A stretch of 64,000 bases of DNA from a virus, in the IMG/VR virus record IMGVR_UViG_3300027908_000006, positions 1 to 64,000 of that record; one strand, 5' to 3'. The translations under genes were made by a program, and so were the position numbers. Under the pieces are notes generated by a model. That model saw only the letters and a program-made list of their open reading frames with translations, had not been told where the DNA came from and made no database searches. Position 1 is the first letter of the stretch. Every line of letters begins with the position of its first letter. Below are positions 1 to 36,777 of the stretch, piece by piece.

Positions 1-1446
1 ATTCTCGGCAAGGCACTGACGCAACACCGGCGCAGCCTCATCATCCGGCGGGAGGCCAAGGACTTGCAGGCGCTCATCGACGCCTGCCGGGAGATCGTTG
101 GTAAGCAGGGGTCGTTCAACGCGAATCTCAATATCTGGCGGGACTTGCCGGGTGGCCGGACGATCCAGTTTGGTGGTTTGAAAGACCCCGGCGACGAGCA
201 GCACTTCCGCGGTAATCCGCACGACCTGATCGGGCTGGACGAGGCGGACCAGATACCAGAGTACCAGGCGCGCTTTGTGATGGGCTGGCTACGGACGACG
301 GACAAGAACCAGCACTGTCAGGTCATCATTTGCTTCAACCCGCCGCACGACCCGGAAGGCGAGTGGCTCATCCGCTTCTTCGCGCCGTGGTTGGATGACG
401 AGCATCCGAACAAGGCGCTACCGGGAGAGCCGCGCTGGTTTGCGATGGTCAATGGTAAGGAGACGGAGTTTACGAAGCCGGACAAGATTAAGATCGGCGA
501 CGAGTGGGTGACTCCCAAGAGCCGGACATTCTTCCCTGCGCGAGTGCAGGACAACCGGGCGCTCTTCGACACGGGCTACCTCGATACTCTACTTGCTCTC
601 CCCTCGCCGCTCCGCGAGCAGCTGGCCTACGGCGACTTCAAGATTGGGCGGGTGGATGGCGCGTGGCAGGCGATCCCGACGAGTTTCATCAAGGCGGCTC
701 AGAAGCGGTGGACGCCCTCCTGTCCCTTCCCCGGCAAGATGACCGCGCTGGGGGCCGACATCTCGCGGGGCGGCACGGGAGCGACCTGTACGGCACCGCT
801 CTACGGGACGTGGTTCGGCGAGTTGGAGGCCGTCCGGGGGCCAGCCACGGACACGGGCCGGAAGGCTGCCAACATCGTCAAGGCACGGCATAAGGACGGC
901 TGCCCGATTAACATGGACATGAACGGCCTGGGGGTGGCGTGCTACGAGCATCTTCAAGAGATGCTCGGCCCGCAGTCGGGTTTGCTACGTGGACTCAATC
1001 CGGGCGACCCCTCGGACCTGCACGAGTCCTCCGGCAAGTTCCAGCTAATGAACCTGCGGGCGGCGATGGTGTGGAGCTTCCGGGAAGCACTGGACCCGGA
1101 GAATGGCAGCACGATTGCCCTGCCTCCCGATGACGAGTTGGCGCAGGACTTGGCGGCTCCCCGCTATCAGGTAGTGGGTGATAAGATCAAGATTGAGATG
1201 AAGTCGGACGTGGAAAAGCGCCTCGGTCGCTCCGTTGATCGTGGCGACGCTGTGGTGATGGCGTGGTGGCAATCCTCCGGGGTGGGGACGGTGCAGGGAC
1301 ACGGGGACCGGAACAAGGAGTGGGGGCTAGGCGTACCGCTCCAATCCACCTCCTTCGGATACGGGGATGAGGAAGAATCCATCCTCTTGTTTGGAGATGA
1401 ACCGACGCCGGACAGGGAAGACAAAGAATGGTGGCAAGATTTATGA
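1..1446 (+). CDS. terL: Terminase large subunit (5' end cut off by window edge)
   Basis: Frame is open from base 1, so the TTG at 64 is only the first in-window start. Walker-B-like LIGLDEADQ, then an acidic nuclease-type C-terminal half (GADISRGG, DRGDAVVMAWW). Directly precedes portal and head genes. Confidence 0.8.
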   Translation: MLGKALTQHRRSLIIRREAKDLQALIDACREIVGKQGSFNANLNIWRDLPGGRTIQFGGLKDPGDEQHFRGNPHDLIGLDEADQIPEYQARFVMGWLRTTDKNQHCQVIICFNPPHDPEGEWLIRFFAPWLDDEHPNKALPGEPRWFAMVNGKETEFTKPDKIKIGDEWVTPKSRTFFPARVQDNRALFDTGYLDTLLALPSPLREQLAYGDFKIGRVDGAWQAIPTSFIKAAQKRWTPSCPFPGKMTALGADISRGGTGATCTAPLYGTWFGELEAVRGPATDTGRKAANIVKARHKDGCPINMDMNGLGVACYEHLQEMLGPQSGLLRGLNPGDPSDLHESSGKFQLMNLRAAMVWSFREALDPENGSTIALPPDDELAQDLAAPRYQVVGDKIKIEMKSDVEKRLGRSVDRGDAVVMAWWQSSGVGTVQGHGDRNKEWGLGVPLQSTSFGYGDEEESILLFGDEPTPDREDKEWWQDL

Positions 1447-2202: not shown

Positions 2203-2516
2203 TCGAACGACTCAACGATACGCACCTGCTGTTCTCTTTCGGCCCCATCACCGCCTGTCTCGGCTGGTTCCACGGCTGGCTGCGACTCTGGGGCCACGGC
2301 GTCTCGTACAAGGACACGCGGCGGGTGGATCTGACGTTCTCACAGCGCTACCAGTTGGCCAAGTGCGTGTTGGTGGGTCCGTGGTGTTTCGAGTGGCTGG
2401 ACAAGGTTCCCGCCGAGATGCTGGGCAGGCCGGTCTATGGACCTTCGCCGTTACGGGTGGCGTGGGACACTTGGCAAACTTTTGAAGAGATCAAGCGAAT
2501 CCGGGCAGGACGATGA
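2199..2516 (+). CDS. Hypothetical protein
   Basis: GTG start overlaps the upstream stop (GTGA). 105 aa, Trp-rich and hydrophobic. Confidence 0.4.
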   Translation: MIERLNDTHLLFSFGPITACLGWFHGWLRLWGHGVSYKDTRRVDLTFSQRYQLAKCVLVGPWCFEWLDKVPAEMLGRPVYGPSPLRVAWDTWQTFEEIKRIRAGR

Positions 2517-3172
2517 CTTCGTACTCCTACTTCCTGACTGCTGCTATTGCCGGGAATCTGTCACTGCCCGAAGTGCAGATCGCTGCGGATTGCGCTGAGG
2601 AGTATGACCCAGAGCAGTTCGAGGCGGTCATGCGCCGCTGGATCATTATGGACAAGGACGATGACTTGCCGCGCCTGCGTTTGGCTGAGTGGTGGATCGG
2701 CAACGGACAGCGCGAACGGGGCGAATTCGTGAAAGTGCAGTGTGAAGCCGAGAAGGTCAGGGACAGGCTTCTTTTCTCAATCGACCCGAAAGACGCCGAA
2801 AAGTACAGCGAATTGCGGCGCATTGAGGAGCAGTTGCGAAAGTGCGATTCCTTTCCGTGCTGGATACAGGATGCGATTCGGAAACACATGGGATGGAGTT
2901 GCTTTCGTCGCGGTTTTATTCAGGAGATACATTGTACAGGTGAAAACTTCTTAAAGCACGCGGATCGTATTCTATGTCGTGAGCCAATCTGTCAGGTGTC
3001 GCTGAACAAATGGCCTATAACTGTTTTCAGGAACATGACTAACAGAAAAGGCCAGTATTCCATTGGTGGTGGTCGCTTGCGAGGATTATTCAGGAGGCCA
3101 GGCGGTATCGACATGGCGCAAGTCATTAAAGCCGAGTGGCCAAGTATCAAATTCACCTGGCCACTCGACTAA
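2513..3172 (+). CDS. TIGR02996-like (Gemmata-type repeat-companion) domain protein
   Basis: ATGA overlap with the upstream stop. DDDLPRLRLAEWWIGNGQRERGEFVKVQCE matches the PRLVYADWLEE.GD..GEFIRVQCE signature as I recall it. The rest is unassigned. Confidence 0.5.
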   Translation: MTSYSYFLTAAIAGNLSLPEVQIAADCAEEYDPEQFEAVMRRWIIMDKDDDLPRLRLAEWWIGNGQRERGEFVKVQCEAEKVRDRLLFSIDPKDAEKYSELRRIEEQLRKCDSFPCWIQDAIRKHMGWSCFRRGFIQEIHCTGENFLKHADRILCREPICQVSLNKWPITVFRNMTNRKGQYSIGGGRLRGLFRRPGGIDMAQVIKAEWPSIKFTWPLD

Positions 3173-5784
3173 CTCCTTGCTACGCCAATCCCTTCCGTGT
3201 TATGCTGTCCAGCATGGCAAAAGAAGTTTATTATTTCCCGACCGATTGGTCCAACGGCGCCCCGGACGATCCGAAGAGTCGCGGGCTGCTCGGCAGCCTG
3301 CGCCGCTTCTTCGGAGGCTGGTTCGGACCCCGCTATCGAACGGCGGCGCTGGAGTACGTCACCGAGGAGAAGGTAGCGTCCTCCCCGCAGAACGTGCGGT
3401 TGCCGTGGTTTCTACCTTACGAGGAGTACGACACCGGCACGGGCGAGACGCAGAACATGCGCAACCTGTACCGCAAGGGACTCGCCTTTCCGCCAGTGAA
3501 GGCCGCCCTCTTGAATAAGGTCTTCGGCGTCGCGGCCCTCAAGTTGCAAATCCACCCAGCGGACAAGCGGAACGATTACGACCAGCAAGTAGCGGATGGG
3601 GTGCGGTGGAACCTGGTGCGGCGGCTGGGTGGCGGCGTGCCGCGATTGGCGTGGAACCTGTTGACTCCGGCCTGTCTGGATGGCTACTCCGTCAACGAGA
3701 AGATTTGGCAGACGCAGGACACGGGTAAGTACGCCGGGAGGATCGCGCTGACGAACCTCAAGATGAAGGACACGGGGTTTGATTTGGTCCCGAAGGTGGA
3801 CCAGTTCAGCAACATCACGTCCTTCCTGGGGCTGCGCTACAACGGAGGCAAGGAGTTCCACCCGTCCGACTTCGTGACCTACGCGCACCTCAAGATGTAC
3901 GAGCGGCCCACGGGCCTCTCGGACCTGCGCGCTGTATTCGAGGCGATGTGGCTCTACGACACCGTTTGGAAGCTGCGCAGGATCGGCCTGACCACGAAAT
4001 CCTTCCCGTTCCTGAAAGGGATGTACGAGCAGGAGAGTCAGCAGCCGGGATTGAATGCGGCCTTGCGGAAGGCGAAGTCGCTCTCCTTCCTTACCGTGCC
4101 GAAGGGTTGCATGGTGGAGGCAATTGAACTGGCGGGCGGCAGCGCCGATGAGTTTAAGAACTGTATTCAGGACTTGCGGGAAGAGATTCTGATGGGGATT
4201 ACCGGGGCGTTCATGCACCAGATGGGGGCCGGTCAGAACGTCAAGCGCGGCAGTTCCGAGAAGGCGGAAAGCGTCTCAGACCTCTTCAAGTGGTTCTTGG
4301 CCGAAGAGGTGTGCGGACTCCTGAACAACGAGGATACCGGCGTCATCAAGGAGATGGTGGACTTAAACCACGTCGTCAGTGAGTACCCCACGGCGTCTCT
4401 CGACGCGATCAGCTGGGAGGAGATGCTCCAATTCGCCAACATCATCGACAAGGCGCGGACGTGGGGGATGCCGCTCTCGAAGGAGTGGTTGTCCGAGAAG
4501 TTGTCCCTGGAAGCTCCGCACGCGGATACGCCGGGAGACGCCTTGGCACCAGCACCGACGCCGGGTGCGCCTGGTTCCACAAATGGAACCAGCCCGCCAA
4601 ACGGGACGCCGTCGGATGGTGGAGGTTCCACTGTATCCCCCGATACAGTTGACAGTCCCAAGGGCGGTACGGGCGGTTCTCCCATCGACGCGGAACCGCA
4701 TAAGTTCTCAGAAGAGTACGTCGCGGAACTGGAAACCTTCGCCGCCAAGCACGGTTGGGAACCGGCGGTGCGGATGGGACACCGTGGCGGACTCAAGGGC
4801 GGTCCCGCCCGCGCCCAATCGCTTACCAAGGAGGAGATGCACAAGATCGCCGTCCAGGGCGGCAAGGCGCGGCAGGCGGGTGAACACGCTATCGGGGTAA
4901 AGAAGAACGCGGACGCTGCCACGGTGAGCGTCTTGACGGCGCAACCGAAGGTGCAGCAGTTCGCGGGCGGCTTTGACGAATCTCTTCATCCGCGAGACGA
5001 TCACGGGCAGTTCGTGGACAAGGGTGAGTTGGAGGCTGCGAAGGCCGATCTGGGCAAGGCACAGGAACTCCGCAAGAAAGTGACGAAGCCAGTGGAGCGG
5101 GCCAAGTTGGAGCAGCACTTGAAGGGGGCGGACTGGTACGGGAAGAAGGGTGGCGCGAAGCAGTCTGTGCCCTATCCTGAAACCGCTGGACACGCACTCG
5201 AGCAGGGAAAGAAGTTCGGCGTGCGGATCGTCGAAGGGGCGAGCGGTACATCGGTGAGCAAGGATCAACTGCACTCCGTCAATGAGCAAGTGGCCAAGAT
5301 TCCGGCGAAGGCATTAGAGGCCGTCACCAAGGCGGGGAGCGGTATAGACGTGGTGGGTGGCAAAGGCATCACGGATCACCCGCACAACGCTCACTTGAAA
5401 GGTGTTGTACCTCGCGGCTGGGAGAAGACCGGCAAGACATGGGACGACGTGCCCGGCGGCGGCGCGCAACATCCCAACCAGCGGACCATCATCGCGGCTC
5501 GTGGTGCTGCCAATCCTTACAGTCACGGTAGCGCCAATCTGGTCCTGCACGAACATGGGCACACCGTCGATGCGTGTTCACGAGACAGCAACAACCAGCG
5601 TCCTTCCGATCAGGCGGACTGGAAAGCAATCCACGGCAAGGTGAAGTGGCCGTCACCGTACCAGCAAGCTTATGCCGAAGAAGCATGGGCTGAGAGTTTC
5701 GCCAAGATGTACAATGGCGAGCAGACCCGCGCCGCACTGCCGCCCGAAGTGCAAGCGTATTTCACACAGAGGTTCGGCACATGA
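3136..5784 (+). CDS. Portal protein (Mu gp29/DUF935-like by context) fused to a C-terminal HExxH metalloprotease domain (PPEP / anthrax-LF-like, M34-type)
   Basis: 882-aa ORF after the terL block. The N-terminal ~460 aa is portal-sized and in portal position within a Mu-like head module. A Pro/Gly/Ser/Thr linker starts at ~4540, followed by LHPRDDHGQF (HPRD = 4987-4998). Then RGWEKTGKTWDDVPGGG...LVLHEHGHTVD (HEHGH = 5548-5562) and YAEEAWAESFAKMY. Start is uncertain: GTG 3136 overlaps the upstream gene; ATG 3202 and 3214 are alternatives. Confidence 0.7.
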   Translation: MAKYQIHLATRLTPCYANPFRVMLSSMAKEVYYFPTDWSNGAPDDPKSRGLLGSLRRFFGGWFGPRYRTAALEYVTEEKVASSPQNVRLPWFLPYEEYDTGTGETQNMRNLYRKGLAFPPVKAALLNKVFGVAALKLQIHPADKRNDYDQQVADGVRWNLVRRLGGGVPRLAWNLLTPACLDGYSVNEKIWQTQDTGKYAGRIALTNLKMKDTGFDLVPKVDQFSNITSFLGLRYNGGKEFHPSDFVTYAHLKMYERPTGLSDLRAVFEAMWLYDTVWKLRRIGLTTKSFPFLKGMYEQESQQPGLNAALRKAKSLSFLTVPKGCMVEAIELAGGSADEFKNCIQDLREEILMGITGAFMHQMGAGQNVKRGSSEKAESVSDLFKWFLAEEVCGLLNNEDTGVIKEMVDLNHVVSEYPTASLDAISWEEMLQFANIIDKARTWGMPLSKEWLSEKLSLEAPHADTPGDALAPAPTPGAPGSTNGTSPPNGTPSDGGGSTVSPDTVDSPKGGTGGSPIDAEPHKFSEEYVAELETFAAKHGWEPAVRMGHRGGLKGGPARAQSLTKEEMHKIAVQGGKARQAGEHAIGVKKNADAATVSVLTAQPKVQQFAGGFDESLHPRDDHGQFVDKGELEAAKADLGKAQELRKKVTKPVERAKLEQHLKGADWYGKKGGAKQSVPYPETAGHALEQGKKFGVRIVEGASGTSVSKDQLHSVNEQVAKIPAKALEAVTKAGSGIDVVGGKGITDHPHNAHLKGVVPRGWEKTGKTWDDVPGGGAQHPNQRTIIAARGAANPYSHGSANLVLHEHGHTVDACSRDSNNQRPSDQADWKAIHGKVKWPSPYQQAYAEEAWAESFAKMYNGEQTRAALPPEVQAYFTQRFGT

Positions 5785-5993
5785 TCGTACTCGTTCCCGT
5801 ACTGGACGATGAGGGCAACATCGTCGGCGATATGCCAGTAGAGGCTCCCGATGGGACGCCTATGGACGATCCGCGCTTCTTCCCTGACTACAGCAAGCCT
5901 GTCGAGAAGCACGCCGAACACCACTATAGCAGCGAATCACCGGGCAACGGGTGGACGCAGGTGGAAGTGGGGCACTGGACGAAGGAGAAGTGA
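5781..5993 (+). CDS. Hypothetical protein
   Basis: ATGA overlap with the portal stop. 70 aa, acidic. Confidence 0.4.
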   Translation: MIVLVPVLDDEGNIVGDMPVEAPDGTPMDDPRFFPDYSKPVEKHAEHHYSSESPGNGWTQVEVGHWTKEK

Positions 5994-5994
5994 A

Positions 5995-6276
5995 ATGACC
6001 GACCAAGAACGCGAAGAGATGAACGCCAAGATCAAGGCGGTGAAGGAGCGGTTCGGGGCTGCCACATCGTCGCTGTCCGTGAGCAATGGCGATGTGCTGG
6101 TACTCAAGATACCAAAGTGCAATTGGGGAAATCTTTCCGAAATCGAAGATGCGCACACGGCCATGAAACAATTGCGTGGGTGGTTCAAGGATAAAGGCGT
6201 CACGGTCCAATACTTCGTAATCCCTGACGATTACGACCTATCGCTGTTTCGGGAAATCATGGGCGAACCGCTCTAA
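5995..6276 (+). CDS. Hypothetical protein
   Basis: ATG 5995 lies just after the upstream stop. 93 aa. The track start at 5851 lies inside the upstream gene. Confidence 0.45.
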   Translation: MTDQEREEMNAKIKAVKERFGAATSSLSVSNGDVLVLKIPKCNWGNLSEIEDAHTAMKQLRGWFKDKGVTVQYFVIPDDYDLSLFREIMGEPL

Positions 6277-6289
6277 AAACGGAATTAAC

Positions 6290-6318
6290 TTGACAACCTT
6301 CACACTTGTCTAAACAAT
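6290..6318 (+). promoter_or_regulatory. Sigma70-like promoter candidate
   Basis: TTGACA at 6290-6295, then TAAACA/AACAAT 15-17 nt downstream. Pattern match only; host promoter rules are unknown. Confidence 0.2.
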
Positions 6319-6438
6319 CATCGTTACGAGGTTTCTCCGTGCGGGCCAGACGGTTCATCGGGATCGTCATGCAAACTTGAATGGCTGAACCGGGGTAAGC
6401 TCCCGGAAGATGCCTAGAACGTCGTTGTCCTTTCTTGG

Positions 6439-6477
6439 AGGCCAGCGATCCATTAGATGGATCGTCTGGCCTTTTTT
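6439..6477 (+). terminator. Rho-independent terminator
   Basis: aGGCCAGcGATCCAT-tag-ATGGATCgtCTGGCCt forms a ~14-bp stem with a small bulge, followed by a T run (6472-6477). Confidence 0.65.
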
Positions 6478-6545
6478 CGTTGCTTGAGGTTACGCTGGTG
6501 CCGCTCCTGAAAGGAAAGTCCAATATCGGACATAACGTGTCCGAG

Positions 6546-8108
6546 ATGGAAAAGGCTGGCCACCCCAAGGACCAAAGCATCGCCGCCGCTCTCCGCACGG
6601 CAGGCGTGCCGCCGAAGAAGAAGCACGCGGAGTCTGGTGCGCGATCGCGCACCAGCACGGAGCGAGCGCCGGAGTGGGAGAAGTTGCGGGACGTGGAAGC
6701 CTTCTCCACAGGTCGGAAGCGGGACAAGGAGTACACGCCGGAAGACTTAAAGGACATCGTGGACAACTTCCACAAGTTTGGCAAGGGCCAGCGTCCCGGC
6801 TTTGACGTGCCCGGCGTGTACGGGCACAAGGAGAAGACCCCTGCGGATCAAGAGCGCTTTCTGGAGGACACCTCCATACCGGCGAAAGCGTGGGTGGAGG
6901 ACGCCAAGACGGACGGCAAGAAACTCTACCTCGACCTGCGGGCCTCACCGGAGTTGGCCAGGGCCATCCGGGACGGCAACTACGGCGCTGTCTCGATCGA
7001 GATTTACGACAAGCCGCCGCAAGGGATTCCAGGCAAAGGCAAGATGATGCGCCGTCTCGCCTTCCTGGGCGGGGAGATACCGCAGGACAAGAATCTCCGG
7101 CGACTGCCGATGCCGGAGAAGTACAGCGAGGCTCAGCGGCGACGGTTAGTGCAGCGCCACTTACTCACGACTCACCTGCGGGACTGTGTTCCGCACGAAG
7201 GATACGTCACCTGTTTCTCCGAGGTTTCCATGATGCAAGAGACGATGCCGGGTCAGGGGATGAAACCCGGACGAGACGAGATGATGCAGAAGCTCGCCGA
7301 GAAGGGCGTCAACCCCGACGCGATGAAGGCCGCTCCCGACGAGTGTCTCGCCGAGATGTGCCGCATGGCCGAGGACATGGGCAAGAAGGACGAACTCGAT
7401 TGGGACCACGAGCCGGAACCGCCCAAGAGTCCCGAAGAGAAGAAGATGTACGGCGAACTGCACAAGAAGATGAGTGCCTACGCCGAGAAGCTCAAGAAGT
7501 TCACCGAAGACCCACTCCCAGGCGTCACCGCCGTCCACCCCGGCCCGTCCGGTTCCGAGAAGTCCGGCCTGGGCGGTCCCTCTGAGGACGTGAAGAAGAT
7601 GAGCGAGATGGTAGCCAACCTCATCGACCAGAAGTTCGCCATTCTCCGTGCCGAGATCAAGCCGGTCGTGGACCGGGCACAGGAGTCCGATCAACTCGAA
7701 GTCTTCAACTTCTGCGAGGTTCAGGTCAAGGCGGGCAAGCTCACCGCCGCACAGGTGGACCGCAAGGACAAGTTCTCCGTTCTCAATGAACTCTTAGACC
7801 TGGACAACACACAGGTCGTGGACAAGTTCTCGGAGAACGGTCGAGAGATCGCGTTGACCAAACGCCGTAAGCGGATGGAACAGATCAAGCGCGGCCCGAC
7901 TGTCTGGAAGAACTCCGAAGTGGCTCACGGCGGTGATCTAAACACGGTGCTGGGCGGCACGGCAGACCAGGACGAGGCCCGGATCGAGCGGTTCTGCGAG
8001 GACAAGGGTATCTCTAAGGAATCGCACCGCAAGGAGATCAAGGAAGGGTGGCTCGCCTTCCGCAAGGCCAACCCGGACGGCAGCGTGGTCGATTACCTGA
8101 GCGTGTAA
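6546..8108 (+). CDS. Prohead protease / scaffold protein (Mu gpI-like)
   Basis: Lies between the portal and capsid genes. The N-terminal third (YTPEDLKDIVDNFHKFG, GVYGHKEK, AKAWVEDAKTDGKKLYLDLRASPELARAIRDGNYGAVSIEIY) follows the Mu-like prophage protein I pattern as I recall it. The C-terminal half is a charged coiled coil, scaffold-like. Start set at ATG 6546 (GTG 6537 possible) because the track start 6435 reads through the terminator hairpin. Confidence 0.55.
   Translation: MEKAGHPKDQSIAAALRTAGVPPKKKHAESGARSRTSTERAPEWEKLRDVEAFSTGRKRDKEYTPEDLKDIVDNFHKFGKGQRPGFDVPGVYGHKEKTPADQERFLEDTSIPAKAWVEDAKTDGKKLYLDLRASPELARAIRDGNYGAVSIEIYDKPPQGIPGKGKMMRRLAFLGGEIPQDKNLRRLPMPEKYSEAQRRRLVQRHLLTTHLRDCVPHEGYVTCFSEVSMMQETMPGQGMKPGRDEMMQKLAEKGVNPDAMKAAPDECLAEMCRMAEDMGKKDELDWDHEPEPPKSPEEKKMYGELHKKMSAYAEKLKKFTEDPLPGVTAVHPGPSGSEKSGLGGPSEDVKKMSEMVANLIDQKFAILRAEIKPVVDRAQESDQLEVFNFCEVQVKAGKLTAAQVDRKDKFSVLNELLDLDNTQVVDKFSENGREIALTKRRKRMEQIKRGPTVWKNSEVAHGGDLNTVLGGTADQDEARIERFCEDKGISKESHRKEIKEGWLAFRKANPDGSVVDYLSV
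6634..6655. repeat. 22-bp perfect palindrome CTGGTGCGCGATCGCGCACCAG, copy 1
   Basis: Self-complementary 22-mer inside the protease/scaffold ORF, encoding GARSRTS. An identical copy lies at 45046-45067. Confidence 0.95.
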
Positions 8109-9056: not shown

Positions 9057-9602
9057 TTAAACAACGTGTTGCCAGATTCGCCCTTGAGCGATGGCATCAA
9101 TCAGCGGTTTGCTGACGTTGTGCTGCTGCGCAAGGACCACTCGCCTTACTCCTGCCGCCAGATCAACGCGAATCTGCCGAACTTTGTCATCATCCAATTT
9201 AGCAAGGCCGTTGCGGACGCCTACTCCACCGTGGCAATGGGAGCGTCGGCCTTTCTTGAGACAGTCGCGGAAGTTGTCACCAGCCGTGCCAAGAAAGAGG
9301 TGTGCCGGGTTGACGCAGGCGGGGTTGTCGCCGCCCGGACAGTTGTGGCAGACTTTCAGGCCGGATGGGATTGGTCCGTGAGTCAGCACCCATGCCAGAC
9401 GATGAGCGTAGATAGCGCGGTGCCGCCGTCGGTCGCTCGCCTCTCGTACTGTGCAAGCCGTGTAGAACCACCCGTAACCGAAGGGGTGGTGTCCTGCCTT
9501 GTCGTTCTGGAATATCCAGCACTCGCCCTTGATGACTTTGGACCAGAATCGCTCGGCTTCGTGGACGGGGAATGGAAACGGGATAGGATCAACCTTGGAC
9601 AT
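9057..9602 (-). CDS. HNH homing endonuclease
   Basis: 181 aa on the opposite strand to all neighbours. AHRLAWVLTHGPIPSGLKVCHNCPGGDNPACVNPAHLFLGTAGDN is an HNH_3-type motif. Confidence 0.8.
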   Translation of the reverse strand: MSKVDPIPFPFPVHEAERFWSKVIKGECWIFQNDKAGHHPFGYGWFYTACTVREASDRRRHRAIYAHRLAWVLTHGPIPSGLKVCHNCPGGDNPACVNPAHLFLGTAGDNFRDCLKKGRRSHCHGGVGVRNGLAKLDDDKVRQIRVDLAAGVRRVVLAQQHNVSKPLIDAIAQGRIWQHVV

Positions 9603-9710: not shown

Positions 9711-10721
9711 ATGAAAATGCCGACAAGTCAGATGCTCGATGTCTATACGGCGCGCTTCAAGGCCGAGTTCTGGAAGGCGTGGAATGCCACTGCCGAACCG
9801 GCGCCGTGGGAGGCGTTCACACAGGTCGTGCCGAGTACCACGCGCATCGAACATTACCCGTACTTCACGCCGATCCCGCAAGTCTCGCTCTGGCAGGGCT
9901 ACCGCAATTACGGCAGCGTGTCGAGCAAGATTTACTCGCTCCAGAACTACCCGTATCACACGGAGTTCCAGTCCACCCTGGAAGACTTCGACGACGAGCA
10001 GACCGGCGCGCTGGCGATGAAGCCGAAGGAACTGGTGGAGAAGTGCAAGCTGTTCCCCGGACGGCAAACGCTCATCAGCCTGGGCAACGGCGCCTCGACG
10101 CCCTGCTTCGACGGCACCAACTTCTTCGCGGGATCGCACACCTACGGCACGGGCAACAACAACCTGACGTACACGAGCCTGGTCAACGACTCGACGACGC
10201 ACTACCTGTACGCGCTCTACTTCGGCAACAGTGTCCTCAAGCCGCTGATCTGGCAGAATCGGGCGGGGCCGGAACTGCGGACCATCGCGGGCACGGAGCA
10301 GAGCTACGAGTCGCGGCAGATTCGCTGGTGGTGCGACCTCCGCGGCGGCTACGGCTACGGCTACTGGTGGAACGCGATCAAGATGACGATTACGGGAACG
10401 CCGTCCGTCATCGACATGCTCTTGATCTTCCAACTGATTGACAACGCCTTCCGCTCCTTCACGCTACCGGTGACGCAGACGAACGAGAAACCGGAGTACA
10501 TCCACGAGCAGACGGTGTTCTCGGACAAGAACCTGTACATGATGGGCAGTATCAAGCTCCAGCAGGTTCTCCGGCAATCGCTGGGTCTGCCGGTCGTGCC
10601 GCAGTACCTCCCCGGCGGCCAGAACGTCGTCAGCGGCAACGTCCAGGCTCAGACAGTCCCTACTGTAAATCTGTACCACCAATTCGCAAGGTACGGTGTG
10701 TCGGCGCTACTAGGCACATAG
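9711..10721 (+). CDS. Major capsid protein (Mu gpT-like)
   Basis: 336 aa with a strong AAGGAG RBS. YTARFKAEFWKAWNATAEPAPWEAFTQVVPSTTRIEHYPYF follows the gpT-family N-terminal pattern. Positioned after the protease/scaffold gene. Confidence 0.7.
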   Translation: MKMPTSQMLDVYTARFKAEFWKAWNATAEPAPWEAFTQVVPSTTRIEHYPYFTPIPQVSLWQGYRNYGSVSSKIYSLQNYPYHTEFQSTLEDFDDEQTGALAMKPKELVEKCKLFPGRQTLISLGNGASTPCFDGTNFFAGSHTYGTGNNNLTYTSLVNDSTTHYLYALYFGNSVLKPLIWQNRAGPELRTIAGTEQSYESRQIRWWCDLRGGYGYGYWWNAIKMTITGTPSVIDMLLIFQLIDNAFRSFTLPVTQTNEKPEYIHEQTVFSDKNLYMMGSIKLQQVLRQSLGLPVVPQYLPGGQNVVSGNVQAQTVPTVNLYHQFARYGVSALLGT

Positions 10722-22733: not shown

Positions 22734-22747
22734 AGGGCCGGTCCGAT
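22732..22747 (+). repeat. 16-bp direct repeat AGAGGGCCGGTCCGAT, copy 2
   Basis: Overlaps the stop of the small ORF and the ATG (22746) of the fibre gene. Confidence 0.9.
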
Positions 22748-25193
22748 GCCGATGGGCTTGTACATGGGACTGAGGATCGACAGCAACCAAGGCGGGGGCG
22801 GTTCGTCATCGGTCACGCTCGGCAAGTACGGTTCCAACCCCGGCGTCCTGCTCTCCACGCCTTCCACGATCCTCGTTCCCACGCCGAACGCGGGTAACCC
22901 ACTGATTGCGATTGGCAGCACGTCCTATCCCACCAACGGCGAACTACGGGACGGCAAGGCCGTGACCGATGGCACGACAGACACTTGGATCATGACGGCG
23001 CCAGTGACATTCAACAACGTCGCCAATCCCTTCCCAGTCCTGGTCCGATACACGTCCCCCGCTGGAGCCAACACCTGGACGCCGCACGGCACGGTTATTG
23101 GCCTGGGCGCCGCGGGCAGGTGGAATGCTGGTGGTTCGTTTGCGCCATCCAAGCCGATCCTCTCCGGCGGCCTGTGGCACATCTATGTTTGTGGTGTACT
23201 CAACACTAATTTCTACTGGGGGTTTGAAGGTTCAACGTGTGCGCTCGGGCACTACACATCCCCGGACCTAATCACCTGGACGGAGGACGTGAACAACCCC
23301 GTCCTTGTCCCCGACCAGCCGTGGGAGGGCAGCAACGGCGTCTATGCAGCGTCGGTGATTCCCTATGCCAGTGGCGGCTGGCTGATGCAGTATTCCACGT
23401 TTAACAACCTCACCGGCGCGTGGGCCAATGCGCTGGCCGTATCGACTAATTTAAGCAGCTGGACGAAACAGGGTTTGGGGTCGCTCTCGTCTGGGGTAAC
23501 GCAGGCTCAGCGCAATGCCAGCCCGCCGCAGGGCTACGTCAAGGAGCAACCGGAGTACCTGCAATATGCGGGGTTGGTCTGGAACGTGACCGACAACATC
23601 CCGAACAACGCCGTGTTCGTCAGTGCGGACGGCGTGAACGAGATGTTCTTCAAGACGATACTCTCGACCAGTTCCATCGGCTGGACTGCCGGGAGTCAGG
23701 GTAGTTGCGGAATGATACTCAACGCCGACAACTCGCTGAACATCGTCTACAACGCGGCCAACAGCAGCAATCGCAACCAAGACGGCGTGGCCAGCGTGCC
23801 CGCATTCCTGAACTTCGGGCCAACGTGGATTGCCGACGCTCCGTCATTTCTGCCCGGTCAAACGTGGTCTATCGGTTGCGACAGCACGGGGACGCAGTAC
23901 GCTTGTCTACCTGGAAAGTATCTGGCGTTTACGACGAGCTTCACCCTGTCGGCTTGTGTGAAGCGCAACGATGGGACGAAGCTGACGACGCTGTTTTCCA
24001 AGCGGTCTTCGGCCGATGCCTCTCTGCTGGAATATGCCCTGTACTGGAATGCGAGCGGCGCTTCTCCGGCCAACAAGCTGCGCTCCGACATTAGCATTGC
24101 CGGGTCGAATCAGGACGTGACCGGCACGGCGGCACACGCGCAAACCGCGTCCTGGCATTTGGCGCATTTGCGTGTCAACGTGGCTGGCGGGAATACGACC
24201 GTTGGGTTCGCATTCGACGGTTCACCGGACGGTTCCTCTACCTTCGCCGGGGCGCCGACGACGTTCGTTAACGACGTGCTGATCGGCGTCGATGAATTGG
24301 TGGATAGCGCTGGCACTTACGCCAATGCCCAATTCTGCGAACTGAACGTCTGGAATCGCTACCTCTCGGACGCCGAAATAGCCGCTCAATTCACCGGCAC
24401 GCCGCCCGCGACGACGAACCAGATATCCCGGATCAAATGTAATGATGGGAGCGGCAAAATCCTGACCGACGCGATAGCCTTCACGCCGTTCACGCCACCG
24501 ACTGCGCTACCTGCGGCGCCGACGCAGCCTGTCTCGCTCTGGCAAGCGGTATTCACACCGAACGGCATCGTCTCCGGCGGGACGCTCACGAATATCTTCG
24601 ACACCGGCCCAGCGAAGAACGATCTGACGTGCAGCGGCAGTGTCTTGCTCGAAGGCAACGTCGCCAACGGCTGGCCCGCCGTGCGCGAGGATGGTTCGAC
24701 TGGCACTTGCACGATGACGACGGGACTCAGTGCGCCGCCGCTTTCTTACATCGCGGTTCTCAAGCCGTCTGCGGCAGGCGTGGCGGCTGGCAACATGGCG
24801 ATTCTCAGCGGGACTGTCGGTGGCATCGAATGGCAGATCACCCAGACCTCGGCCAAGCAAGCACTTAACAAAGCCTTTGTGTCCAACCTTGGCGTGTCCA
24901 ACACGTCGCTGTCTACCTCAGTCCCGCAGATGGTGGGACTGACCATCGACGGTTCGGGGAATGGCAATTTCTATTTGAACGGTGTCGGCGATGGCACGTT
25001 CTCCATCGGCGCCAACACGTTTACCTTCACCCAAGGTTACGTCGGCGCTCAGAACACTGGGGGCACGACGATTGCCGAGCGCTTTGCAGGCGATTGGTAT
25101 GTGATCGGCGTTGATAGCGTGCCGCTGGTGTACACGCCGGCGCAAATGGCGGCCTGGAACACGCGCTGGGCGGCACAGTTCGGGATTAGTTGA
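22746..25193 (+). CDS. Tail fibre / receptor-binding protein with LamG (concanavalin-like) domains
   Basis: 815 aa. LamG_3-type signature ELNVWNRYLSDAEIAAQF. The N-terminal third has a beta-propeller/glycosidase-like flavour (WTEDVNNPVLVP), unverified. Confidence 0.5.
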   Translation: MPMGLYMGLRIDSNQGGGGSSSVTLGKYGSNPGVLLSTPSTILVPTPNAGNPLIAIGSTSYPTNGELRDGKAVTDGTTDTWIMTAPVTFNNVANPFPVLVRYTSPAGANTWTPHGTVIGLGAAGRWNAGGSFAPSKPILSGGLWHIYVCGVLNTNFYWGFEGSTCALGHYTSPDLITWTEDVNNPVLVPDQPWEGSNGVYAASVIPYASGGWLMQYSTFNNLTGAWANALAVSTNLSSWTKQGLGSLSSGVTQAQRNASPPQGYVKEQPEYLQYAGLVWNVTDNIPNNAVFVSADGVNEMFFKTILSTSSIGWTAGSQGSCGMILNADNSLNIVYNAANSSNRNQDGVASVPAFLNFGPTWIADAPSFLPGQTWSIGCDSTGTQYACLPGKYLAFTTSFTLSACVKRNDGTKLTTLFSKRSSADASLLEYALYWNASGASPANKLRSDISIAGSNQDVTGTAAHAQTASWHLAHLRVNVAGGNTTVGFAFDGSPDGSSTFAGAPTTFVNDVLIGVDELVDSAGTYANAQFCELNVWNRYLSDAEIAAQFTGTPPATTNQISRIKCNDGSGKILTDAIAFTPFTPPTALPAAPTQPVSLWQAVFTPNGIVSGGTLTNIFDTGPAKNDLTCSGSVLLEGNVANGWPAVREDGSTGTCTMTTGLSAPPLSYIAVLKPSAAGVAAGNMAILSGTVGGIEWQITQTSAKQALNKAFVSNLGVSNTSLSTSVPQMVGLTIDGSGNGNFYLNGVGDGTFSIGANTFTFTQGYVGAQNTGGTTIAERFAGDWYVIGVDSVPLVYTPAQMAAWNTRWAAQFGIS

Positions 25194-32391: not shown

Positions 32392-32445
32392 GCCGTGACT
32401 TTCGACGATATCCATCGCCCCCTATCCCAAAACAAAGGAGCATCC

Positions 32446-33744
32446 ATGAAGCGTGTGATTCTGTTCTCTCCTGTTATCGCTTTCGTGTTCGTCGCGTTGT
32501 CGTTCGTCGATGCCCGGCAGGACGTTGAGAAGAAAGTGCCCGGCTGCTGCCCCGGCGTCCAACAGGTTGCCCAGGTCGATCCGAAGAAGGCCGACGACAA
32601 GGCCAAGCCAAAGGCCGACCTCAAGAAGCACGGCCGCGGTTTCAAGTTGCCACCGAAGCATGTCCGCGACGCGATCCACCGCATCAGCGAGGCGAAGTAC
32701 GGTCACATTCGCAAGGCGTTGCCGGTTGCCACGGCAGCGGTCTATGACGCCCGCGTGCAAGGTGTCATTCCGCCCGTGGGCAATCAAGACGGCTGCGGTG
32801 ACTGCTACATGTGGTCAGGCTGTAAGGCTGGCGCGTCGGCACAGATGGTTGCGGGAGTCGTGCCGAAGGATGGCAAGTTTATGCTCGCGCCGTCTTTCGG
32901 CCTCGACTGTCACCCAGAGCTAGGAGGTTGTGATGGAGGCGACGAGCAACAGGTTGCTCAGCTGATTGCCAGTGCTGGCTGGCCGTCTGTGGCTCAGTAT
33001 GGTGGCGACGGCTACACACCGGGAACTTGCAAGCCGACGACAGGCATGACGCTGTACACGCTGTCATCCGTGATGATGGTCAGTCCGTCGTCGGGAATCG
33101 CGTCAACCCAGGACATCAAAAACGCGATTCAGGCATACGGCTTTTGCAGCATCGCGGCGGCGGCTGGCAGTGATTGGGACAACCTCGGCGGCGGCTGCAC
33201 GATCACCGGCAGCAGCACGGACATCAACCACGCGATTGGCTATGTTGGGTGGGACGACAACCATGACAACGGGGATGGTTCCAAGGGAGCTGGCATCATG
33301 CAGAACAATTGGGACACCAGTTGGGGCTGCAACTGTGCCAACACAGTCAATCCGAATCCGTCCGAGCCGGGTGGATATGCTTGGGTGAAGTGGGGTGCTG
33401 ACTCCGCAGGGACCGAAGCGTTCGTCTGCATCGCTGCCGCTGGACCTGTCCCGCCGCAACCGCCAGTGCCTCCCGTGCCGCCGATTCCCCCAACCCCGCC
33501 GACGCCGGGTATGAACCCCATCGTGTCGATCGTGGCGACGTTCCAAGATGGGACGACGCAGACGCTCATGGGTGTGCCAACGCCGGGCACGACCATCACG
33601 CCGACGACGACGTTGCAACAGCTGCTCGACATGATGCAGAAACCAATGGCGCCGCCGAAGAAGCCGGGACAAACCATGCTGGATCGACAACTGGAGTACA
33701 ACCGGCGCGAGTTGGAAGAGTCATTCGCCCCGGTGAAGCCATGA
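32446..33744 (+). CDS. Secreted papain-family (C1-like) cysteine protease
   Basis: AAAGGAG RBS and signal peptide MKRVILFSPVIAFVFVALSFVDA. Catalytic-type motifs NQDGCGDCYMWS (Cys), INHAIGYVGWDD (His) and MQNNWDTSWG (Asn/Trp). Followed by a PVPPQPPVPPVPPIPPTPPTPG linker and a short C-terminal domain. Confidence 0.65.
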   Translation: MKRVILFSPVIAFVFVALSFVDARQDVEKKVPGCCPGVQQVAQVDPKKADDKAKPKADLKKHGRGFKLPPKHVRDAIHRISEAKYGHIRKALPVATAAVYDARVQGVIPPVGNQDGCGDCYMWSGCKAGASAQMVAGVVPKDGKFMLAPSFGLDCHPELGGCDGGDEQQVAQLIASAGWPSVAQYGGDGYTPGTCKPTTGMTLYTLSSVMMVSPSSGIASTQDIKNAIQAYGFCSIAAAAGSDWDNLGGGCTITGSSTDINHAIGYVGWDDNHDNGDGSKGAGIMQNNWDTSWGCNCANTVNPNPSEPGGYAWVKWGADSAGTEAFVCIAAAGPVPPQPPVPPVPPIPPTPPTPGMNPIVSIVATFQDGTTQTLMGVPTPGTTITPTTTLQQLLDMMQKPMAPPKKPGQTMLDRQLEYNRRELEESFAPVKP

Positions 33745-35610: not shown

Positions 35611-36777
35611 ATGATCCTGACCTATTCCTACAAGCTGTATTTGAGCGCCACGCAAGAAAAGACTCTTGAGCGATGGTTGCGTACCTGTTGTTGGATTTAC
35701 AACCGCGCGTTGGAGCATCGCATTAAAGCGTACCAGCGGCGTAAGGAATCCGTCAGCTATCGGGATCAGCAATCATTATTGACCGAATGGCGTGGACGAA
35801 TGGGGAACTTGCGTCTTGTGCCGGTCGAATTCGAGCGCGATGCGTTGCGTCGGGTGGATCATGGTTTCAAGGCTTTCTTTCGACGACTAGCTGATGGGGA
35901 AAAGAAAGTCGGTTTTCCACGCTTTCGTTCGCACCGCAGGTATCGGTCGCTCGAATGTCTGTTTGTGCAACCGTACTTGCGTGGCGACAGAATTCGCATT
36001 CCGAACCTTGGTTTAGTCCGATGTCGTGGGCGACTCCTGCCCATTGGCAAACAACGGGGCTTACGGATTATCCATCGGGAGGGCGGCTGGTACGCGCAGA
36101 TACTCTTGGACAATGGCGTACAGGTTCCTCCGTGCAAAACGCAAACTAGCATCGGTATCGACGTGGGCCTGACTTCGTTCGCTACGCTCAGTAACGGTGA
36201 AAAGGTTGATAATCCGCGTTTTGGGCGAAAGGCTGAACGTAAGATATGTTCTCTGCAACGGCGGGTATCGCGGCGACAGGAAGGCAGTGCCAACCGCCGC
36301 AAGGTTGCTCAACGGCTGGCAAGGCAACACGAGCGAATCGCATCTCAACGACGTGCGTTCTGCCATGTCGAAGCGCGGAAGATCGTCAACCGTTTCAACC
36401 TGATTGCTTTCGAGAGCCTAAACATCACCGATATGGTGAGAAACCATAAGTTTGCGCGTTCGGTTATGGACGCGGCTTGGGGCTTCTTCGCCTTCTGCCT
36501 GATCTACAAAGCTGCAAATGCTGGTGGTCAGGCAGTTGGCGTCGATCCTCGCAGGACAAGTCAGGAATGTCCGTGGTGTGGCAAGATCGTCCCGAAGAAA
36601 CTTTCTGAGCGTCGTCACCAGTGCGAATGCAAGCCGGGTGTGGTCATCGACAGGGACCACGCGGCGGCTCTGGTGATTCTTGCTCGCGCCGTTGCTGGTA
36701 AGCGCGGCGAATCGCTTGTGGAGGAATCGACCTCTACCGCGCCATCTGTTGGTGGTGTCGGCATGTCGTTCCGGTGA
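35611..36777 (+). CDS. tnpB: TnpB (OrfB) RNA-guided endonuclease
   Basis: 388 aa. RuvC-I IGIDVG (D184), RuvC-II IAFESL (E268), zinc finger CPWCG-x14-CEC, RuvC-III VIDRDHAAALVI (D347/D349). N-terminus YKLYLSATQEKTLERWLRTCCWIYNRAL is typical of OrfB_IS605. Confidence 0.85.
   Translation: MILTYSYKLYLSATQEKTLERWLRTCCWIYNRALEHRIKAYQRRKESVSYRDQQSLLTEWRGRMGNLRLVPVEFERDALRRVDHGFKAFFRRLADGEKKVGFPRFRSHRRYRSLECLFVQPYLRGDRIRIPNLGLVRCRGRLLPIGKQRGLRIIHREGGWYAQILLDNGVQVPPCKTQTSIGIDVGLTSFATLSNGEKVDNPRFGRKAERKICSLQRRVSRRQEGSANRRKVAQRLARQHERIASQRRAFCHVEARKIVNRFNLIAFESLNITDMVRNHKFARSVMDAAWGFFAFCLIYKAANAGGQAVGVDPRRTSQECPWCGKIVPKKLSERRHQCECKPGVVIDRDHAAALVILARAVAGKRGESLVEESTSTAPSVGGVGMSFR

Follow-up and report, generated by a model that had tools for sequence, protein, structure and literature searches.

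The first 64,000 nucleotides of the IMG/VR virus record IMGVR_UViG_3300027908_000006 (hereafter, the window) carry an open reading frame (ORF) that encodes a portal-cargo fusion, composed of a Mu-type phage portal domain, a Pro-rich linker, a poorly structured tether of ~160 amino acids (aa), and a zinc endopeptidase domain of the Pro-Pro endopeptidase (PPEP, family M34) type. The fusion belongs to a known class of polymorphic and polyvalent cargo fusions on phage head proteins, within which this type of cargo was not found described in the literature searched. The protease is best read, with a probability of roughly 0.6, as an effector that would be encapsidated, released, and directed against the host. 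The parts of the ORF, with residues numbered from GTG 3136, are as follows.

3136..5784 (+): portal-tether-protease ORF, 882 aa from GTG 3136, stop codon 5782-5784
3469..4506 (+): Mu-type portal domain (aa 112-457), Pfam PF06074 Portal_Mu, E=1.4e-27
4507..4695 (+): Pro/Gly/Ser/Thr low-complexity linker (aa ~458-520), read from the sequence
4696..5172 (+): tether module (aa 521-679), conserved Gly/Lys-rich GWEPAVRMGHRGGLKGGPARA...IAVQGGKARQ, HPR motif, and charged helices
4984..5013 (+): LHPRDDHGQF motif (aa 617-626), a short linear motif in the tether
5137..5209 (+): cassette junction, from blastp coordinates against the relatives P0002, P0003, P0027, P0034, P0039, and P0054
5209..5781 (+): PPEP-like M34 zinc metalloprotease domain (aa 692-882), from Pfam ATLF, similarity to PPEP-1, and AlphaFold2 (AF2)/Foldseek
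5404..5457 (+): S-loop VVPRGWEKTGKTWDDVPG (aa 757-774), from alignment, with roles from PMC12828418
5548..5562 (+): HEHGH zinc/catalytic motif (aa 805-809; H805, E806, H809), from alignment
5659..5682 (+): oxyanion Tyr Y842 and Glu tandem E848-E849, from alignment

Portal, tether, and protease domains of the fusion

The protease domain matches ATLF (PF07737) over aa 706-868 with E=5.8e-24 and 85.3 bits, against a gathering cutoff of 27.4. Its best sequence matches in the PDB by phmmer are PPEP-1/Zmp1 (E=4.5e-21 to 1e-17), PPEP-3, and PPEP-2. The AF2 model of aa 656-882 has a predicted template modeling score (pTM) of 0.78, and in a second model, of aa 520-882, the protease has a predicted local distance difference test score (pLDDT) of at least 84. 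The first 42 Foldseek matches in the PDB are all PPEP-1, PPEP-2, or PPEP-3, with template modeling scores (TMt) of 0.68-0.81 across the first 40 and of 0.75-0.81 for the leaders, PPEP-2, PPEP-1, and PPEP-3. The fold is thus that of the characterized members of MEROPS family M34: PPEP-1 (Zmp1/CD2830) of C. difficile, PPEP-2 of P. alvei, and PPEP-3 of G. thermodenitrificans. Identity to PPEP-1 is ~38% over 181 aligned residues.

Active site residues were mapped by pairwise alignment to P0090, a 220-aa relative with PPEP-1 numbering, and residue roles were taken from the PPEP-3 structure paper (PMC12828418). H805, E806, and H809 correspond to PPEP-1 H142, E143, and H146, and E848-E849 to the Glu184-Glu185 tandem, of which E849 (E185) is the third zinc ligand; Y842 corresponds to Tyr178. 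All these residues are invariant in alignment A2, Y842 and the Glu tandem in the clade alignment as well. The S-loops are nearly identical (VVPRGWEKTGKTWDDVPG in the phage protein and VVPKGWEGTGKTWDDVPG in PPEP), with P759, R760, W762, W769, and V772 at the positions of P100, K101, W103, W110, and V113. Two further residues of the S1/S1' proline pockets, H797 and L802, correspond to H134 and L139, such that the HExxH motif, the Glu tandem, the Tyr, and all S1/S1' proline-pocket residues are shared with the PPEPs. The differences from PPEP-1 lie in the other subsites: H753 replaces Y94 (S3), A813 replaces H150 (S2), Q843 replaces L179 (S2'), and G798 replaces D135 in the diverting loop. Three positions are instead PPEP-3-like, namely Arg at 101 (R760, matching PPEP-3 Arg111), Gly at 135, and His at 94. 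The zinc-binding, catalytic, and Pro-Pro-enforcing features are intact and the protease is apparently catalytically competent; the conserved pocket residues suggest hydrolysis at Pro-Pro (xxP-PxP) sites, with a subsite preference that is probably its own.

Unlike the PPEPs, the phage domain has no signal peptide and forms the C-terminal end of a portal protein. Its source, a soil phage of 59% GC, also contrasts with the description of the PPEP family as secreted and confined to Clostridiales and Bacillales, in a phylogeny paper that makes no mention of phages (PMC8610288). The catalytic domain of anthrax lethal factor (LF) belongs to the same Pfam family, has the same zincin core, and is found by Foldseek at E=3.5e-5, but is distant (16-17% identity, TMq ~0.5), and the phage ORF has neither a protective antigen (PA)-binding nor a VIP2-like domain. 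Because of its S-loop and proline-pocket residues, the phage domain is grouped with the PPEPs rather than with LF.

The portal assignment rests on a Portal_Mu (PF06074/DUF935) match that spans profile positions 4-335 of 336, i.e. nearly the full length, together with the terminase-portal-protease-capsid order of the surrounding module. The domain also matches the PHROG portal family phrog_113 (E=5e-25), and its homologues P0002-P0025 are 31-68% identical to it. Pro-rich linkers comparable to the one that follows it are present in all portal relatives; in the linker of this phage, TSP-PNG (P487-P488) is the one Pro-Pro site that lies between the portal and protease domains.

The tether is common to P0002, P0003, and P0004. 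It is not a MuF domain and has no Pfam, PHROG, or NCBIfam match, and no NCBIfam model matches any part of the ORF. In the AF2 model of aa 520-882, it is built as short helices and disorder with pLDDT of 30-68. A degenerate MuF domain or a prodomain packed on the protease was considered for this module and is unsupported, as the model contains low-confidence helices and disorder. The pattern HPRxxxGxF, to which LHPRDDHGQF conforms, occurs 4 times in 241 collected proteins, compared with 0.1 expected from shuffles, and always sits in the tether between the head-anchoring module and the cargo domain. A longer consensus, [FW]DE..HPR...G[KRQ]F[IV].[KT]G, occupies homologous positions in P0002, P0036, and P0043, and a relaxed form of the motif follows the portal domain of P0035. 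The motif could be a cleavage or docking signal.

The ORF is a single uninterrupted frame. The same protein is present in the public collection as an 860-aa entry (P0001), for which the database gene call starts at ATG 3202, and homologues begin with MAxExYFPDDW at a position equivalent to ATG 3214 (856 aa). Because GTG 3136 overlaps the upstream gene, a start at ATG 3202 or ATG 3214 is favored, and the protein is probably 856-860 aa long. There are 0 mismatches over 2583 nt of the ORF between two assemblies of a ~69.5-kb soil-metagenome contig. The name of one assembly record carries run ERR1700722, and the two assemblies are probably not independent samples because both probably come from the same soil sequencing project. 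The ORF frame has the highest G+C content at third codon positions (GC3) in 14 of the 16 300-nt intervals that span the gene; in the remaining two, at 4486 and 5386, the codon-position-1 frame is higher by 0.03. Over the portal part GC3 is ~0.8-0.9, and it is lower over the extension (0.63-0.77) and over the cargo part (0.64-0.75), which is compatible with later acquisition of the cargo but is no proof of it. The identity of the assemblies, the GC3 frame signal, and the lack of an internal stop argue together that the fusion is not a gene-calling artefact.

The initial annotation, made from the sequence alone, had described an 882-aa ORF that joins a portal-sized N-terminal region, a Pro/Gly/Ser/Thr linker, a recurrent LHPRDDHGQF motif, and a PPEP- or LF-like zinc protease with conserved ligands. 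All four parts are recovered here, with Portal_Mu and ATLF both found by Pfam, the motif enriched among related proteins, and sequence, residue map, and the Foldseek comparison with PPEP-1 that it had proposed in agreement on the protease. The continuity of the frame likewise stands, and its start probably lies farther downstream. The HExxH motif with a downstream Glu that had been proposed as the catalytic core is present as HEHGH; the third zinc ligand is E849, and E853 of AESFA is not a ligand.

Recurrence and exchange of the protease cassette

Relatives of the protease domain were collected by an exhaustive phmmer search with aa 656-882 against 1.84 billion representative proteins, which yielded 676 relatives, 21 of them at E<1e-30. 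A signal-peptide-like N terminus is present in 0 of the 25 best relatives, and 17 of these 25 have an N-terminal extension of at least 180 aa. Lower in the list, typical secreted PPEP-like proteins predominate. The head-linked relatives, with domains assigned by Pfam for the proteins (P numbers) and with loci on IMG/VR contigs (L numbers), show the following arrangements.

MuF + ATLF: P0034 (58% identity), P0042, P0052, and P0057
Phage_min_cap2 (SPP1 gp7 family) + ATLF: P0046
Phage_portal (HK97 type, unrelated to Portal_Mu) + ATLF: P0035 (54% identity, phmmer)
Phage_portal + MuF + ATLF: P0054
MuF + ATLF + two ADP-ribosyltransferase domains: P0055
MuF-ATLF fusions: L006 and L008
Pfam MuF + an ATLF-like stretch seen by tblastn alone: L011
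ATLF + ART-PolyVal: L009
MuF, then a separate ATLF gene: L004
HK97-type portal ORF 3866..5689 (607 aa), its 3' end overlapped by an ATLF ORF 5641..6564 in another frame: L005

Both fused and split genes, a distinction that the initial annotation had proposed to check in related phages, are therefore represented. The arrangement in L005 is either a split or a frameshifted portal-protease fusion. In L003 (ena:ERZ27247785:k141_719882), the contig of the closest relative, P0027, MuF and ATLF lie in one frame with a single TGA between them; this codon, at 1063..1065, stands where the MuF HPxCRC motif has its conserved Cys, and the ATLF ORF resumes 55 codons later. The TGA may reflect an error of sequencing, a nonsense mutation that splits a MuF-ATLF fusion, or a site of read-through. 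Across the head-linked relatives, the catalytic and proline-pocket residues are kept, and the S2, S3, and S2' positions are variable.

The portal side of the fusion varies independently of the protease. P0002-P0004 (61-68% identity) share the portal, linker, and tether, after which their C termini are unrelated. More distant Portal_Mu proteins carry MuF, a C39 peptidase with a 2',5'-RNA-ligase-type domain, or a MuF-intein-topoisomerase IB arrangement, among others. The breakpoint is sharp, at aa ~680 (~5170): similarity to the portal lineage stops at aa 676-682, and similarity to the cargo lineage starts at aa 680-692. In P0035 (aa 551, through 881), P0036 (aa 613), and P0038 (aa 624), similarity reaches farther upstream, so the protease can carry some of the tether along. 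By these alignments, the protease cassette (aa ~680-882) is exchangeable among head-protein carriers, namely MuF, SPP1-gp7-like proteins, two portal families, and polyvalent proteins. A further set of relatives, the high-GC cellular proteins P0029-P0031, combine PG_binding_1/PG_binding_3 with ATLF and have PRGWPPGKTW in the S-loop; they are a wall-anchored branch of the family outside Firmicutes.

A tblastn search with the protease domain against 50,697 GenBank phage records gave no match even at E<=1, and PHROGs contain no family for aa 469-882; this protease clade is thus essentially absent from cultured phages. The BFVD contains distant analogues only, a metalloprotease of Mycobacterium phage Pharaoh and a metagenomic "minor capsid protein".

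Enzymatic cargo on head proteins is itself an established theme. Zhang et al. (2012) described MuF as a phage-capsid-like delivery route for polymorphic toxins, and listed Tox-ALF, a metallopeptidase that resembles anthrax lethal factor, as a toxin domain for Photorhabdus virulence cassette (PVC) and type II secretion system (T2SS) delivery, not for MuF (PMC3482391). Jamet et al. (2017) found a metallopeptidase on ~20% of MuF toxins (PMC5576092). Like the phage fusion, MuF toxins place an exchangeable C-terminal enzymatic domain, common to other toxin families, on a protein of the head-packaging module, and the nearest homologues of the phage protease domain sit on bona fide MuF proteins. Unlike in MuF toxins, the portal itself is the carrier, without a detectable MuF domain, which would give up to 12 copies as opposed to the 1-2 of SPP1 gp7, and no immunity gene is conserved at the phage-protease loci compared. 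Iyer et al. (2017) reported effectors joined to "MuF or portal" that are predicted to be packaged and injected; examples are BcepF1.124, a fusion of InPase with the portal, and PBECR or 2H domains carried by MuF or portal (PMC5512222). The protein in the window corresponds to their definition of a polyvalent protein, with a virion structural domain and an effector in a portal-terminase phage; it follows the same portal, linker, and effector plan, and the domain most often present in that class is a zincin-type metallopeptidase. In contrast to the 12 metallopeptidase clades of polyvalent proteins, which are not specifically related to previously defined zincins (PMC5512222), the phage domain is a clear ATLF/PPEP member. 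No description of a PPEP/ATLF-type protease on a portal or MuF protein was found in the literature searched, from which the terms ATLF and PF07737 are absent; nor were PF07737 and ATLF found in the readable part of the supplements of Jamet et al., whose table may include ATLF. That polymorphic and polyvalent cargo on MuF or portal proteins had already been described was missed by the initial annotation.

Genome context and host

The portal fusion sits in a Mu-type head module, of which the following genes were assigned in the window.

64..1446 (+): large terminase, C-terminal part (the window begins inside the gene)
5781..5993 (+): 70-aa ORF that overlaps the portal stop (ATGA)
6498..8108 (+): head maturation protease with a scaffold-like C-terminal part, phrog_976, E=4.4e-20
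9717..10721 (+): Mu gpT-like major capsid protein, from a PF10124 match to the gene as called on the full contig, L001

The terminase is followed by four small ORFs, the portal fusion, a pair of small ORFs of 70 and 93 aa, and the head maturation protease; after these come a decoration-like protein, an oppositely oriented HNH endonuclease, and the major capsid gene. On the full contig, the terminase gene (L001 5435..8245) encodes 936 aa with a LAGLIDADG homing endonuclease/intein signature, from weak Pfam matches. The HNH_3 endonuclease gene (9057..9602, -), between the decoration-like and major capsid genes, is likely a free-standing homing endonuclease. Neither the 70-aa nor the 93-aa ORF downstream of the portal fusion has a family match. 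The N terminus of the 70-aa ORF resembles a peptide with which P0027 continues in frame beyond its ATLF domain, and its C-terminal end, KHAEHHYSSESPGNGWTQVEVGHWTKEK, resembles the extreme C terminus of the P0002 portal extension. The ORF appears to be a conserved "tail piece" that this phage encodes separately. No MuF domain, the usual carrier of such cargo, was found in the ORF by Pfam or in a six-frame scan of the window with a local hidden Markov model that covers the PF04233 type of MuF. An all-versus-all BLAST of downstream ORFs, comprising those of the window and of L003-L011, revealed no candidate immunity gene conserved with the window; the sole shared downstream item is a small ORF common to L003 and L004.

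The only hint of a host comes from the ORF just upstream of the portal (2513..3172, +), which matches TIGR02996 (rpt_mate_G_obs) at E=1.3e-7, above cutoff. This domain was defined on proteins of the planctomycete Gemmata obscuriglobus, and the match hints at a planctomycete or similar host, for which the other scans gave no confirmation. Portal patterns found no relative in 185,579 GTDB species genomes. An IS605-family TnpB (35611..36777, +), with HTH_OrfB_IS605, OrfB_IS605, and Cas12f1-like TNB domains, gave no host signal, as none of its GTDB relatives exceeds 49% identity and they are taxonomically scattered, with Cyanobacteria, Chloroflexi, and archaea among their sources. No tRNAs were found in the phage. 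An 815-aa protein (22746..25193, +) with a Laminin_G_3 (concanavalin-like lectin) domain is probably a tail fibre or receptor-binding protein.

A further protein of 449 aa (32395..33744, +) has an N-terminal signal or transmembrane segment, then a C1 cysteine protease domain of the papain family (E=8e-15). The linker after this domain, GPVPPQPPVPPVPPIPPTPPTP (~33442..33507), contains six overlapping xxP-PxP motifs, a run that is unique in the phage proteome. No xxPPxP protein adjoins the portal-protease gene, and the gene for this one is 26 kb away. The run resembles the tandem cleavage sites of PPEP substrates and is possibly a substrate of the portal protease, or a plain proline-rich linker. 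The peptide PVPPVPPIPPTP is a candidate substrate for the portal-borne protease alongside this C1 peptidase.

Possible roles of the portal-borne protease

Portal C termini face the capsid lumen, and the fusion would for this reason pack up to 12 protease copies covalently inside each head. After assembly, the cargo would probably be detached from the ring, whether the separate prohead protease cuts it loose or it cleaves itself within the linker, and could then exit with the DNA via the portal-tail channel. Once ejected, the protease would cleave a host protein, or a few of them, early in infection, at sites that are rich in proline and probably Pro-Pro. MuF toxins and polyvalent proteins (PMC5576092, PMC5512222) are the precedent from which we infer release and exit with the DNA. 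The initial annotation had likewise preferred a packaged or ejected effector to a maturation protease, on the grounds of a separate prohead protease gene, and this preference and the gene are both upheld, since the phrog_976 protease at 6498..8108 already covers the maturation role. It had also placed twelve protease copies at the portal vertex; a number of up to 12 stands, although the copies would lie inside the capsid and may be trimmed by processing.

Several points weigh against an injected effector. The phage is uncultured and known from a single soil dataset, and we infer not only the packaging, release, ejection, and activity of the portal protease but also its host target, the release step, and its specificity. 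Pro-Pro specificity is plausible but unproven because the S3, S2, and S2' pockets differ from those of the characterized PPEPs. A folded zinc protease of ~22 kDa must unfold for passage through the channel. As no immunity-like gene is conserved after the domain across loci, this is not a classical toxin/immunity pair, and the host scans gave no basis on which to name a target. Furthermore, the metallopeptidases of polyvalent proteins are mostly predicted to be autoprocessing enzymes rather than effectors (PMC5512222). A more specific version of the effector proposal is put forward only tentatively: that the cassette represents a large, hitherto undescribed phage-borne clade of Pro-Pro endopeptidases outside Firmicutes, that the portal replaces MuF as the vehicle, and that a dozen self-freeing copies, packed behind the DNA, are injected against a defined proline-rich host protein. 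In this version, self-release would occur possibly at the linker Pro-Pro site, and the target would be, e.g., an envelope, defence, or regulatory factor.

The protease could instead act at assembly without being delivered, trimming its own portal extension, for example at TSP-PNG, or other phage proteins. The prediction of Iyer et al. that most polyvalent-protein metallopeptidases autoprocess their polypeptide (PMC5512222) speaks for such a role, as do the ADP-ribosyltransferase domains that adjoin the protease in P0055 and L009, which it could release. In the phage ORF, which has a single effector domain and holds no other cargo, the protease would free just itself, and processing of a multidomain polypeptide is accordingly not an obvious role. 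At least one linker Pro-Pro site lies just upstream of the protease in most related fusions, at aa 487-488 here, but such sites are weak evidence because Pro-rich linkers contain Pro-Pro by composition; the site in this linker, moreover, has Gly at P3', where Pro is a shared PPEP preference (PMC12828418). The tandem xxP-PxP sites of the phage-encoded C1 peptidase would suit a protease that acts on phage proteins, but the signal peptide of this secreted protein places it in another compartment. With a dedicated head maturation protease also present, an assembly-stage or autoprocessing role is judged unlikely. Another alternative concerns the site of action: as an entry enzyme directed at the envelope, the ejected protease would cut proline-rich envelope or wall-anchored proteins in the periplasm or wall and so aid genome entry. 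All characterized PPEPs cleave extracellular, wall-associated proteins (PMC8610288), and the cellular relatives P0029-P0031 combine the domain with peptidoglycan-binding domains. TIGR02996 is present in the ORF that precedes the portal. Planctomycete envelope proteins are reported to be proline-rich. On the other hand, virion enzymes that degrade the wall are normally found at the tail or its tip rather than on the portal's lumenal face; GTDB genomes scanned for TnpB and the portal returned no host signal; and Pfam identifies no envelope-binding domain in the ORF. An envelope-directed role is accordingly considered improbable.

That the fusion is a non-functional relic or an artefact, arising from an error in assembly or gene calling or from a decaying cassette, is largely refuted and would be very surprising. 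The probable origin of the assemblies in one soil sequencing project, the lower GC3 of the cargo relative to the portal, and the in-frame stop between MuF and ATLF in the L003 relative could each be read in its favor. Against it stand the uninterrupted ORF, recovered with the same sequence by two assemblers, the integrity of all catalytic and substrate-contacting residues, and the independent fusion of the domain to two unrelated portal families and to MuF. An encapsidated protease that is released and directed against the host thus remains the preferred reading of the fusion.

For phage biology, the fusion adds a sequence-specific endopeptidase to the enzymes carried on phage head proteins, and it indicates that the portal can stand in for MuF as the carrier, which raises the expected copy number from 1-2 to up to 12. 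The PPEP family is widened by a clade that is linked to phage heads, has no signal peptide, and keeps the proline pockets while varying S2, S3, and S2'. This head-linked clade constitutes a natural specificity panel that is directly profilable by existing peptide-library assays. If the protease is indeed injected, it would be a "first-strike" protease whose specificity could be read with existing PPEP peptide libraries, and its target would reveal a host factor that phages must disable at entry.

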